Assembly (NCBI GenBank): GCA_050251055.1 | Contig: JBFWNL010000004.1 | Span: 13,863-45,862, forward strand | Direction: 5' to 3' | Length of the DNA stretch: 32,000 nt | Source of the DNA: Bacteriovoracia bacterium | GTDB lineage: Bacteria; Bdellovibrionota; UBA1018; JBFWNL01 | Shown: positions 13,814 through 16,751 of the stretch, in pieces | How positions within the stretch are numbered: the stretch's first letter is position 1 | Layout of the letters: each line of letters starts with the position of its first letter | The notes under the pieces: model-generated | Told to the model about the DNA's origin: nothing | Seen by the model: only the letters and a program-made list of their open reading frames with translations | Databases searched by the model: none | Program-made: the position numbers and the translations under genes

Positions 13814-16236
13814 TGAATATGGTGAAGCATTCCTTCAACTACCGCCAAATCATTCTCTGGGGGCTGACCCTTTATCTCACGCTCGCCACGCCGTTCGCCT
13901 TCGGCAGCAGCTATCAGGACTACGAGCGCGTGAAACGCGCTTCCGAAACCCAAGTGCGCAACATCGTGCAGCCGCTCGTTTCTAAATACTGCCAAGACCA
14001 ATGCGAGCTCTTGAACGTCGAGGCGGAAGTAAAGACGGATGATCCGGCGGCGATCGCCCCGGGGTTCGAGGACACGGACACCGCTGGCGGCTTACGCCTG
14101 GTGCCGGCGGTCGTGCGGGTGAAGCTCTTGATCGACGAGATGGTCGGCCCCAACCTGCGCCGTAACCTCATTGACCTCATCCATAAGCACCTCAACGCGA
14201 TGGAATATCCGGTGGCGATCGACACTACGCTCACGCGCTTCCCGCAACCCTTGAACTCCGCACGCAAGGTCGCTGAGCTGCGGGACAAGGTCACGAAACA
14301 ATTCAAAGAAACGCTGGGCCAGCTTTTCAACCAATTCTGTCCTGAGCAATGCCTCCTGGCCGACTATGACATTAAGGTCGAACCGGTTAACTTAGAGGAA
14401 ACGCAGTACGGTTCCTCGGGCGAATACGTGCAGGACGGCGACACCGCGATCCGCGTGAAGAAAGTGACCGGCACGGTGCTCCTCGACACGACGCTCACGC
14501 CCGACGAGCAAAACAACATCATTGAAATGACGAAGCTCAAGACGAGCTACCTCAAGAACGTCGAGCTCATGGCCCAAACCATGACGTTTCCGCATCCACT
14601 ACCGTTCGAAGGCGACGGAAAGCTGGGCGTGGGTCGCGGAGGGCTGGCGGGCCGCGGGGGCAAGAGCCTCTCGGAATCGCGCTCGCTCGCCTCCAACAGC
14701 GACTCCAAGTCGACCTTAAGCAAGCTCGATAAGCAAAATTCCACCAGCAACAGCACGAATAGCAACAACAGCACCAACAGCAGCTCGAACAACGTCAACA
14801 GCAAGGACGCGATCGAGAAAAATGAAAACGCCACGAAGAACGAAAAGTTCGAGCGCTACGAGAAGATCGAGCGCGTGGAAGACGGCGATGCCGTTCAAGA
14901 ACAGCTCAAACGATACGGCCTAATCGCCCTGGTTTTCGGCTGTTCCGTGGTGGCGCTCATGGTGCTCATGTGGATCGCGCTGGCGCGTCGCAACGACCGC
15001 GGTCGCGCGGGCGGACTGCCGCGCTTTATCCAGGGGATCACCCCCGAGTTCCTGCAGCCCAAGGCGCCCGCCGCCGGCGATGGCGGCGTCGGATCCGGTC
15101 GTGGCGAGCTCATCGCCAAGCGGTACGAGATCGAGCAGCTTTGCGAAGAGCTTACCAAGGTGTTTGCCGAGCAGCCCAAGGTGGCCAAACACGTCTTTAC
15201 CCGCATCCTGACCGAAGAGGGCGTCGAAATCACCGCCGACTACCTCGCGATCTTTGGCGAAACGATCGTCATGGACATGTTGCGCGATCCGAACCTACAG
15301 CGTGACTTGACCGAACTGATGGAGTTCTTCGCGAAGAATCAGATTGAGCTCAACGACGACGAGAAACTCGATCGCTTAAAACGGTTGCACAACCGCACGG
15401 TCGCTTCGAAGCTGATCGTGATGGGCAAACGTACGTCCAACTCGTTCGAGTTCCTGTTCGACATGGACAGCCTGCAGGTGTTGGAGCTGATCAAGAACGA
15501 ATCCGTCACCGTGAAGGCGATCGTCATCACGCAATGCGACCCGCAGAAGCGCACGGCTATCTTCAACCATCTGGACGAGCCGACGCGCATGAAGCTCCTG
15601 AACGAACTCTCGCGTATCGACTACCTGCCGCGCGACTACATCTTCAACGTGGCCAACGCTCTCAAGCGCAAGCGTCAGGACAACCCGAAGCTCAACACGG
15701 AAGCCCTGCCGGGATCCGACGTGCTGGTCGGATTGCTCGAACGCACGCCCTTCGATATTCAACGCAATGTCGTGCAACAGCTCGAAGCCACCAACCCCGA
15801 CAACGCCCGGGCGGTCAAGAGCAAGCTCGTCAGCATCGACACGCTCACGTATCTACGCGATGCCCAGCTGCTCGAGATGGTCATGGGCCTGAAGCATGAC
15901 GAGCTCCTGCAGTTCCTGAAAGGCGCGCCGAAGCATATCTGCGACACGATCTACCGCAAGGCTCCGAAGGAGCTCGTCGAAGAACTCAACGAAGAGTTGG
16001 GATCGGTGTCCGAAGTGGGACGCGATGCCTACCAGACCATCGAGCGTAAGCTCATCAATCGCATCAAAGTCATGGCCAACGAGGGCCACATCAACCTCGT
16101 GGAAACCAACGAGCGGATGTTCACCGATCGGCAAAGCAACGTCGAGGCGATCACCCGCGGCGGCCAGGGCGGCGACGGCAACACCGGTGGCATGACGGGC
16201 ACGGGCGGGCAGTTCAAGAAAGTGGCGGGTTGGTGA
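13813..16236 (+). CDS. Bitopic membrane protein: SctJ/FliF-like periplasmic module (two RBM-like repeats) fused through a TM helix to a full-length FliG-like cytoplasmic module
   Basis: 807 aa. Features in order:
- N-terminal hydrophobic segment IILWGLTLYLTLATPFAFG.
- Residues ~45-265: two tandem repeats.
- N/S/T-rich linker.
- TM LIALVFGCSVVALMVLMWIALA (residues ~369-391).
- The cytoplasmic ~400 aa align by eye with FliG.

SFEFLFDMDSLQVLELIKNESVTVKAIVITQCDPQKRTAIFNHLDEPTRMKLLNELSRI matches FliG_M 'PFsFv...dp.ql..fl..EHPQtiAvvLsyLdP..aa.il..Lpe..q.ev..Ria'. LTYLRDAQLLEMVMGLKHDELLQFLKGAPKHICDTIYRKAPKELVEELNEELGSVSEVGRDAYQTIERKLINRIKVMANEGHINL matches FliG_C 'FeDi..Ldd..iq.vLrevd...La.ALKGAs.elkekif.NMSkRAa..lk.ELe.mGPVr..dVeeAQ..Ii.i.rrLeeaGeI'. 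Confidence 0.7.
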   Translation: MNMVKHSFNYRQIILWGLTLYLTLATPFAFGSSYQDYERVKRASETQVRNIVQPLVSKYCQDQCELLNVEAEVKTDDPAAIAPGFEDTDTAGGLRLVPAVVRVKLLIDEMVGPNLRRNLIDLIHKHLNAMEYPVAIDTTLTRFPQPLNSARKVAELRDKVTKQFKETLGQLFNQFCPEQCLLADYDIKVEPVNLEETQYGSSGEYVQDGDTAIRVKKVTGTVLLDTTLTPDEQNNIIEMTKLKTSYLKNVELMAQTMTFPHPLPFEGDGKLGVGRGGLAGRGGKSLSESRSLASNSDSKSTLSKLDKQNSTSNSTNSNNSTNSSSNNVNSKDAIEKNENATKNEKFERYEKIERVEDGDAVQEQLKRYGLIALVFGCSVVALMVLMWIALARRNDRGRAGGLPRFIQGITPEFLQPKAPAAGDGGVGSGRGELIAKRYEIEQLCEELTKVFAEQPKVAKHVFTRILTEEGVEITADYLAIFGETIVMDMLRDPNLQRDLTELMEFFAKNQIELNDDEKLDRLKRLHNRTVASKLIVMGKRTSNSFEFLFDMDSLQVLELIKNESVTVKAIVITQCDPQKRTAIFNHLDEPTRMKLLNELSRIDYLPRDYIFNVANALKRKRQDNPKLNTEALPGSDVLVGLLERTPFDIQRNVVQQLEATNPDNARAVKSKLVSIDTLTYLRDAQLLEMVMGLKHDELLQFLKGAPKHICDTIYRKAPKELVEELNEELGSVSEVGRDAYQTIERKLINRIKVMANEGHINLVETNERMFTDRQSNVEAITRGGQGGDGNTGGMTGTGGQFKKVAGW

Positions 16237-16751
16237 TGATCGAAATAACGCCTACCGTCGAGTTATTGAAAGAGATCAATCTGTTCGCCTCGTTCAATGA
16301 GCACGAGCTGAACGAGATCTTGCGTACCGGTGAATCAAAGGTATTCGAGGCCTATAGCAACGTGGTCATCGAAGGCGAGCTGAGCTGGGGGCTTTACATT
16401 ATTTTGGAAGGCACGGTCGGCATCTTCAAGAATAGCGCGACCGCGAAGGATATTACCTACGATATCGGCCAGCTAAAGAAAGGCAGCTTCTTCGGGGAGA
16501 TGTCGCTCGTCGACGAGAATCCGCGCTCGGCCACCGTTCGCGCGCTTACCGAATGTCAGCTTTTTTTCATCTCCAAGGAAAGCTTCTCCGCCTTCCTGGA
16601 CCGGTCCGGCGACGGAAAAAACCGGTTTTACGAACGATGCGTGAAAATCCTGGTTGGCCGTTTGCGCGAGCTGAACGACAACTACGTCATCAGCCAGTAC
16701 CAGCTGTGGAAGACCGCGCTGGAGAAAGATAAAGAAGAGGAAGTAGCCTAA
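16236..16751 (+). CDS. Stand-alone cyclic-nucleotide-binding (CAP/PKA-type cNMP) domain protein
   Basis: About 171 aa. It reads LFASFNEHELNEIL...VVIEGELSWGLYIILEGTVGIF...GSFFGEMSLVDENPRSATVRALTECQLFFISKESF, with the phosphate-binding cassette FGE...PRSAT.RA. No HTH or other output domain is present. The track starts at TTG 16230. I prefer ATG 16236, which overlaps the upstream stop (TGATG 16234-16238) like the neighbouring junctions. Confidence 0.85.
   Translation: MIEITPTVELLKEINLFASFNEHELNEILRTGESKVFEAYSNVVIEGELSWGLYIILEGTVGIFKNSATAKDITYDIGQLKKGSFFGEMSLVDENPRSATVRALTECQLFFISKESFSAFLDRSGDGKNRFYERCVKILVGRLRELNDNYVISQYQLWKTALEKDKEEEVA

Follow-up and report, generated by a model that had tools for sequence, protein, structure and literature searches.

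A stand-alone cyclic-nucleotide-binding protein encoded between FliG-like and MotA-type genes: candidate regulator of a putative second rotor-stator module in UBA1018 Bdellovibrionota

Which function is fulfilled by a protein that consists of little more than a cyclic-nucleotide sensor and is encoded between a rotor-type and a stator-type gene? This question is raised by a stretch of 32,000 nucleotides (the window) of the Bacteriovoracia bacterium assembly GCA_050251055.1 (contig JBFWNL010000004.1), in which a cyclic-nucleotide-binding (CNB) gene at positions 16236-16751 is located between a FliG-like gene and motA. The gene product, referred to as the CNB protein, is interpreted here, with confidence that is about evenly balanced, as a cytoplasmic receptor for cyclic AMP or cyclic GMP (cAMP/cGMP) by which a second rotor-stator module, distinct from the flagellum, would optionally be regulated. 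For a cAMP/cGMP-gated effector of this kind, the interface between the FliG-like protein and MotA represents the most likely target.

The CNB sensor domain and its ligand

Comparison of the CNB protein with Pfam revealed a match to the cNMP_binding family (PF00027; 70.8 bits at a cut-off of 27.5, E = 9.5e-20) covering residues 36-123 and profile positions 3-88 of 89, and no other Pfam family was matched. The best sequence matches in the PDB were CNB domains of PKG and PKA-R; the PKA-R architecture of tandem CNB domains, inhibitor site and dimerisation/docking domain is not present in the CNB protein, which possesses a single CNB domain according to Pfam and to its structure model. The phosphate-binding cassette FFGEMSLVDENPRSATVRA (residues 85-103, Table 1) agrees with a PROSITE-type pattern for cyclic-nucleotide binding, and the first PROSITE-type pattern fails on the protein with Ser50 as the apparent misfit. 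In an alignment of 47 homologues being 57-69% identical to the window protein, the cassette residues F85, F86, G87, E88, M89, S90, L91, D93, R97, S98 and A99 are invariant. The same applies to F131 and C135 of the lid helix and to a C-terminal block comprising R142, L143, R144, L146, V151, Q154, Q156, L157 and W158, and the C-terminal helix pair is the best-conserved stretch of the protein apart from the cassette.

The AlphaFold2 model (predicted local distance difference test score, pLDDT, of 83.6) features the canonical CNB fold with an eight-stranded beta barrel, a short cassette helix (residues 88-91), a hinge helix (114-123) and a lid helix (125-145). Past the standard CNB lid, a further helix comprising residues 149-170 was modelled with a block-mean pLDDT of approximately 70, reaching 53 at the last residue. 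Judged from the model, this extra amphipathic helix is the only candidate output element of the protein and also a candidate oligomerisation element. A Foldseek search of the model against the PDB resulted in 642 matches at E<=0.001; the 50 matches listed are all CNB or CRP/FNR-type sensors (CNG, HCN, PKA-R, PKG, SthK and CRP), and the top ones listed are CNG chains from entries with a C-terminal leucine-zipper coiled coil, with 173-187 aligned columns. Given the invariant cassette and the ligand-binding type of the modelled fold, the sensor looks fully functional.

Searching 5.8 billion proteins yielded 621 homologues of the CNB protein at E<=0.001, and the possibility of a chance open reading frame could be rejected because of these homologues. 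Those listed (120 of the 621) have lengths of 157-193 amino acids, are 57-71% identical and are annotated with PF00027 only. DNA-binding or enzymatic domains were not found in the Pfam and NCBIfam scans. The NCBIfam CRP model aligned at positions 12-113 of 214 only, with 49.9 bits compared to a cut-off of 266, and a CRP-like transcription factor was ruled out, as the helix-turn-helix domain is absent. Furthermore, no PilZ domain was detected in the Pfam scan (E<=0.01), and FliM or FliN (SpoA) domains were not among the Pfam matches. The description given in the initial annotation, namely a single CNB domain with intact cassette and C-terminal helix and with neither DNA-binding nor enzymatic output, is therefore borne out by Pfam, the alignment of the 47 homologues and the AlphaFold2 model as well as by the restriction of the CRP match to the sensor half.

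Regarding the ligand, the Arg-Ser-Ala cassette does not separate cAMP from cGMP at the sequence level. Moreover, CRP/FNR-type domains are able to accept other ligands, and some CRP-like proteins bind cyclic di-GMP (c-di-GMP). Since ligand specificity is not readable from an Arg-Ser-Ala cassette, binding of c-di-GMP or another small molecule to the CNB domain has to be taken into account; it is considered highly unlikely, because cyclases are near-universal in the order and the Gly-Glu ... Arg-Ser-Ala cassette, through which known CNB domains contact ribose and cyclic phosphate, is invariant in full. The search for adenylate or guanylate cyclases suggested in the initial annotation revealed five class III cyclase domains in the window's genome, and 58 of the 61 genomes sampled from the order encode class III cyclases (PF00211), among them 16 of the 17 members of a genus designated g4. 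Based on this gene content, ligand supply is plausible. Co-distribution of CNB and cyclase genes is uninformative as evidence, since cyclases are near-universal in the order and also occur in g4.

Three more CNB-domain proteins are encoded in the same genome. Two of them are stand-alone proteins of 183 amino acids (G000:C9:76277-76828 and G000:C4:112267-112818), and the gene of the third one, a protein of 393 amino acids (G000:C13:34309-35490), directly adjoins a class III cyclase gene (C13:35750-36286).

Operon position, distribution and losses of the CNB gene

The CNB reading frame comprises 171 codons with a stop-free translation and overlaps both of its neighbours, as had been claimed previously, by one base each: the A of the FliG-like stop codon TGA (16234-16236) is common to the CNB start codon ATG (16236-16238), and the CNB stop codon TAA (16749-16751) has one A in common with the motA start codon (16751-16753). 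An alternative in-frame start codon, TTG at 16230, would lead to a protein of 173 amino acids with an N-terminus starting with MV, and most of the 47 aligned homologues begin with MV. The predicted start is thus 16230 or 16236, either of which overlaps the FliG-like gene. Relatives retain this close coupling on both sides of the gene, with gaps of at most 3 nucleotides in nearly all junctions, ranging from -4 to +3 between CNB and motA (36 of 37 loci) and from -14 to +3 between the FliG-like gene and CNB (34 of 35); at least five of the loci counted represent the same genomes fetched twice. A scan for promoters and terminators resulted in one weak promoter-like site (11610-11639), and the sites were not in excess of chance.

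In order to describe the distribution of the gene, samples of 201 genomes of the phylum and 61 genomes of the order were considered. Within the phylum sample, CNB orthologues are confined to the window's own order. The gene order g411 - TPR - FliG-like - CNB - MotA - MotB was identical in all 16 relatives analyzed first. Of the 61 genomes of the order, 40 encode the operon-specific N-terminal half of the FliG-like protein and 27 the CNB orthologue; 26 of these 27 also possess the FliG-like half. In the exception, G204, the FliG-like half was not found and the CNB gene is located 342 bases from the contig end. Another 20 genomes of the order sample were negative throughout: neither the operon nor a CNB orthologue was detected in them, and the ordinary FliG is kept where checked.

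These findings bear on the question whether the CNB protein, as a genuine cAMP/cGMP receptor, might have its target outside the operon, e.g., in the ordinary flagellar motor, the operon position then serving co-expression only. The genome encodes a complete ordinary flagellum, FliD and two flagellins are encoded nearby at 2376-9205, two other stand-alone CNB paralogues exist, and lineages devoid of the CNB gene exhibit no interface footprint. However, wherever a CNB-bearing contig extends to both neighbours, the gene is positioned between the FliG-like gene and motA, and no orthologue occurs among the 20 operon-less genomes, G204 being an apparent exception with the gene near a contig end. A target outside the operon is therefore regarded as unlikely.

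Within the 40 operon-bearing genomes, 14 do not carry a CNB orthologue, namely twelve members of genus g4 as well as G220 and G228. The nine CNB-less loci read are all contiguous and show no CNB match. In eight of them, 0-7 nucleotides separate the FliG-like stop from the motA start: the first six g4 loci gave 2-7 nucleotides, and open reading frame coordinates gave 4 nucleotides for G213 (g4), 0 for G228 and 96 for G220. In a tree built from the FliG-like protein, MotA and the g411 product, the CNB-less g4 clade is nested in CNB-bearing lineages, its successive sisters G219 and G033 both carrying the CNB gene, and G220 is nested in another CNB-bearing clade. Since the g4 clade and G220 are each placed among CNB-bearing lineages, the tree points to at least two independent losses of the CNB gene. 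The tree labels wrongly show G219 as CNB-less, its gene being cut by the contig end and visible by tblastn.

G219 (L078, G219:C339:12-389) was assigned to the otherwise CNB-less genus g4 and forms its basal branch in the tree; its CNB gene adjoins the FliG-like gene on a contig of 6.7 kb. The corresponding bin shows 5% contamination and consists of 620 contigs, and a binning error is possible.

Clusters without the gene, which the initial annotation had counted against its proposal, thus occur in part, namely in 14 of the 40 operon-bearing genomes. Likewise, of the stoichiometric co-production with rotor and stator parts that had been deduced from the gene overlaps, the conserved coupling stands and the fixed stoichiometry does not, because the operon exists without CNB in these genomes. 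Translational coupling is evidence for co-expression, not for fixed stoichiometry. The losses fit an optional regulator, and the operon after at least two losses either still functions or at any rate is maintained by selection, which speaks against a core structural role, so that the CNB protein is read as an accessory regulator rather than a core part.

By their record titles, the contigs of the relatives all represent Bdellovibrionota-type metagenome-assembled genomes (MAGs), among them FG-1 and FG-2, which were placed in class UBA1018 with the proposed name Bdellonasia (PMC13200544). The whole operon is present on FG-2, and CNB-MotA-MotB were found on an FG-1 contig; these magnetotactic 'Bdellonasus' MAGs correspond to L041 and L048 in the set of loci bearing operon genes. 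FG-1 and FG-2 cells are described as possessing one thick polar flagellum and a bottlenose-shaped anterior pole of 200-300 nm (PMC13200544). The second rotor-stator module might belong to the flagellum or to the bottlenose pole of these cells.

The predicted rotor-stator module and the role of the CNB protein

The FliG-like protein encoded upstream was modelled by AlphaFold2 with a pLDDT of 78.8. Following an N-terminal hydrophobic segment, the model contains two alpha-beta-beta-alpha-beta modules (residues 30-139 and 145-255), a disordered linker, a transmembrane helix at approximately 356-389 and a helical cytoplasmic region resembling FliG N/M/C (427-780); the sequence has two hydrophobic segments. 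Foldseek matched this model to full-length FliG (3hjl, E = 6e-8, 319 of 321 columns) and to FliF of the MS-ring (7bk0_B at 2e-4 and 6scn_A at 5e-4). Together with the Pfam FliG_M and FliG_C matches, this confirms the upstream gene as a real FliG relative, and the model suggests that the protein is a natural fusion of a FliF-like part with two ring-building modules and a full-length FliG. Engineered FliF-FliG fusions are reported to be ring-forming (PMC11481574).

Within the FliG-like protein, a surface conserved specifically in this family (NES.T ... E.SRID) is found in place of the FliM-binding EHPQR motif. The torque helix, encoded in the region of window positions 15900-16000, reads K-E...EEL.EEL...R rather than R...(D/E)D...R; the canonical FliG pattern R281/D288/D289/R297 is not retained at the aligned positions, and the family has its own conserved pattern, K(E/D)L..EL.EEL...(R/K).

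At its C-terminus (window 16090-16236), the FliG-like protein has a Gly-rich, disordered tail closed by a conserved basic-hydrophobic motif, which is KKVAGW here and RRVA, RKVG or RRYG in relatives. The tail motif (K/R)(K/R)V(A/G)(G)(W) was rejected as a CNB-linked feature, as related tails are present in CNB-less genomes; for the same reason it appears to be more than a by-product of the gene overlap.

Regarding the downstream gene pair, the motA product matched the NCBIfam models MotP (1e-43), MotA (1e-39) and PomA (1e-38), all under the equivalog cut-offs (e.g., 149 bits compared to 394 for MotP). Because these cut-offs were not reached, the operon MotA, which shows 60-75% identity across relatives, is classified by sequence as a divergent member of the flagellar-type stators. 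MotB retained the plug, the OmpA-like peptidoglycan-binding domain and the channel Asp within SYAD. The previous designation of both genes as a flagellar-type stator pair accordingly holds, based on the MotA_ExbB match and on these MotB features. At the aligned positions of the operon MotA, the canonical charged pair (R90/E98 in E. coli) is not retained: a gap or Ser and Lys, Asn, Ala or Ser are found instead, basic and acidic residues are located one to two positions off, and the family possesses its own conserved pattern, ..KK.S.G...L(K/N)(D/E). The private MotA and FliG-like patterns may form a co-evolved interface. Since the MotA charges, the torque-helix charges and EHPQR were all replaced by family-conserved patterns, these replacements would fit a dedicated rotor-stator pair without use of FliM.

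Ordinary flagellar FliF, FliG and FliM are encoded on contig 3 of the same genome and a second MotAB on contig 1, for which reason the operon module appears to be separate from the ordinary flagellum. In addition, two small stand-alone proteins of 154 and 143 amino acids, each made up almost entirely of a FliG_C domain, are encoded at G000:C7:101388-101852 (-) and G000:C10:18898-19329 (+), also seen as L002:1468-1932 and L004:1387-1818, with Pfam E-values of 2.7e-27 and 1.9e-12. Their genes are not located beside motor genes and have neighbours including a phosphodiesterase, a glutamine synthetase and a sigma-70 factor.

The replaced FliM-binding motif leads to a further explanation, namely that the CNB protein is a constitutive structural or assembly subunit that takes FliM's place under FliG, nucleotide binding being vestigial or purely structural. 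It would be in line with the tight translational coupling, with the family-specific conserved FliG_M surface in place of EHPQR, and with the finding that the CNB protein is the sole soluble cytoplasmic product of the operon. On the other hand, the operon remained intact in the 14 genomes without CNB after at least two independent losses, CNB-less genomes keep the conserved FliG_M surface too, and an invariant cassette is unexpected if the ligand is irrelevant. A constitutive subunit is hence quite unlikely.

For the favoured interpretation of the CNB protein as an optional, nucleotide-responsive regulator, the following mechanism is conceivable. The membrane-anchored FliF/FliG fusion, recognised by fold and domains, would act as candidate rotor and assemble with the dedicated MotA/MotB stator and with envelope partners. 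A cyclic mononucleotide would bind to the invariant cassette and, as is the case for other CNB domains, cause the hinge helix and the lid helix to move, and this movement would hide or expose the invariant extra C-terminal helix. By docking on either the FliG_C-like domain or the cytoplasmic side of MotA, the latter could alter torque generation or stator engagement. The CNB protein could in this way serve as brake, clutch or activator. The intact sensor fold, the lack of any other output domain, the conserved operon position and the dispensability are shown by the analysis, and ligand, partner and sign of the effect are inferred.

Several points weigh against this interpretation. Instead of binding a partner, the C-terminal helix could use its invariant aromatic residues to cap the nucleotide base, and gene order cannot tell which neighbour, if any, represents the target. 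Moreover, clustered relaxation of conserved residues was not observed in the FliG-like protein, MotA or MotB of the CNB-less g4 members, and the comparison gave no sign of a lost interface: columns that are at least 90% conserved in CNB-bearing genomes and switched in g4 (7 in the FliG-like protein, 2 in MotA, 1 in MotB, 1 in the TPR protein and 5 in the g411 product) are scattered. Finally, all genomes are uncultured MAGs.

Table 1. Coordinates of the CNB gene, its structural elements and neighbouring genes within the window.
Feature	Position	Strand	Evidence
Divergent lipoprotein candidate, 339 aa (amino acids) (g339)	10565..11584	-	Lipobox LTAGC; conserved neighbour
Exported protein, 411 aa (g411), first operon gene	11782..13017	+	Signal peptide, Pro/Ala/Thr spacer, Gly/Ser/Tyr-rich C-half
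TPR lipoprotein candidate, start uncertain	12959..13813	+	Lipobox-like PQGC; weak TPR, E 6e-5 and weaker; position conserved
FliF-like plus FliG fusion (predicted), 807 aa	13813..16236	+	Pfam FliG_M and FliG_C, AlphaFold2, Foldseek
Stand-alone CNB protein, 171 aa	16236..16751	+	PF00027, AlphaFold2, Foldseek, 621 homologues
Phosphate-binding cassette, residues 85-103	16488..16544	+	Invariance in 47 homologues, AlphaFold2 helix 88-91
Hinge and lid helices, residues 114-123 and 125-145	16575..16670	+	AlphaFold2; F131, C135, R142, L143, R144 invariant
Extra C-terminal amphipathic helix, residues 149-170	16680..16745	+	AlphaFold2; V151, Q154, Q156, L157, W158 invariant
MotA-type stator A subunit, 261 aa, PomA/MotP-like flagellar class	16751..17536	+	Pfam MotA_ExbB, E 8.5e-19
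MotB-type stator B subunit, 271 aa	17555..18370	+	Pfam MotB_plug 1.3e-18, OmpA 3.6e-13
Zinc ribbon - transmembrane - SH3-like protein, usual last operon gene	18418..19452	+	TIGR02098, 23.7 bits (cut-off 20.9)

Among the remaining operon genes, g411 is present in every relative whose locus extends that far (48-63% identity). Its product has no family match in Pfam or NCBIfam, and the Gly/Ser/Tyr-rich half could be an outer-membrane barrel, an impression gained from composition. The zinc-ribbon protein features weak SH3 matches and a transmembrane segment at approximately 154-180; its gene was found in 9 of 16 relatives and in most loci of a further locus set, and was not found adjoining the operon in the CNB-less g4 loci read. 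The divergently oriented g339 adjoins the operon in 21 of 26 relative loci read.

Upstream of the operon, at a distance of 1.4-8 kb, the genes for FliD and two flagellins are located (2376-3776, 6989-7822 and 8312-9205, all on the minus strand). At least six relatives (L024, L027, L028, L032, L033, L036) likewise have a flagellin gene on that side of the operon on which g339 lies, in five of them together with MeaB. This proximity may reflect plain colinearity rather than a functional link, as downstream housekeeping genes were retained too. Convergent on the operon end, the region 19458-22486 (-) encodes a multi-transmembrane protein without Pfam match, an MpaA-like M14 murein peptide amidase and a DedA/VTT protein; the multi-transmembrane and MpaA-like genes were found in 8 of the 16 first relatives, and neither adjoins the operon in the first six g4 loci that were read.

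Comparison with known motor regulators and significance

Where a second messenger is known to control bacterial rotary motors directly, c-di-GMP acts via PilZ proteins, and to our knowledge cAMP acts on motility only via transcription. The c-di-GMP-dependent brakes and clutches YcgR, MotI (DgrA) and FlgZ are, like the CNB protein, small soluble messenger receptors without enzymatic or DNA-binding output. The known ones dock on MotA or FliG, and by analogy the same logic is proposed for the CNB protein. In contrast to these PilZ proteins, it possesses a CNB fold, its presumed messenger is a cyclic mononucleotide instead of c-di-GMP, its gene resides inside a rotor-stator operon, and its presumed target is the FliF/FliG-fusion module rather than the flagellum.

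With the CRP/CAP family, the CNB protein has the sensor domain in common, as is also evident from the Foldseek matches to CRP-family sensors, and the CRP cassette features Arg-Ser-Ala as well; unlike CRP, it cannot act alone as a transcription factor, having no helix-turn-helix. The CNB domains of CNG, HCN and SthK channels and of PKA and PKG, which represent the best sequence and structure matches, pass a ligand-driven lid movement to an attached machine, and CNG channels contain a further C-terminal coiled-coil helix comparable to the extra helix of the CNB protein. Their domains are fused to a channel or kinase or arranged in tandem, whereas here a free single domain is encoded. Similar in architecture is, for example, PDB entry 3gyd, a stand-alone bacterial CNB protein of similar length from structural genomics that matches CNB residues 8-149; the match table gives neither a function nor a motor context for this entry.

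Two cytoplasmic proteins, FapA in Borrelia burgdorferi and EpsE in Bacillus subtilis, are known as flagellar-motor clutches that control stator-rotor engagement. Neither is described as a receptor for cyclic nucleotides, and the likeness to the CNB protein is one of role, with no homology claimed. In full-text literature searches, neither the operon nor any CNB protein with a stator as its target was found to be described, and in a paper on MotAB evolution (PMC12505986) the terms 'cyclic nucleotide' and 'cNMP' do not occur.

Tentatively, and with somewhat more doubt than trust, the CNB protein may be considered the first cAMP/cGMP receptor acting directly on a MotAB-type ion-driven machine, this machine being a second, undescribed FliF/FliG-based rotor in UBA1018 Bdellovibrionota. 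The natural CNB-less lineages provide a ready comparison in this respect. If the proposed role is true, an envelope machine that is derived from the flagellum and so far undescribed would become accessible through the protein, by way of a ligand that can be added and of a small soluble partner for pull-downs and structural work. Confirmation that the protein acts directly on the motor would make it the first cAMP/cGMP effector of a machine of the MotAB type, and a new messenger together with a new sensor fold would be added to motor control.

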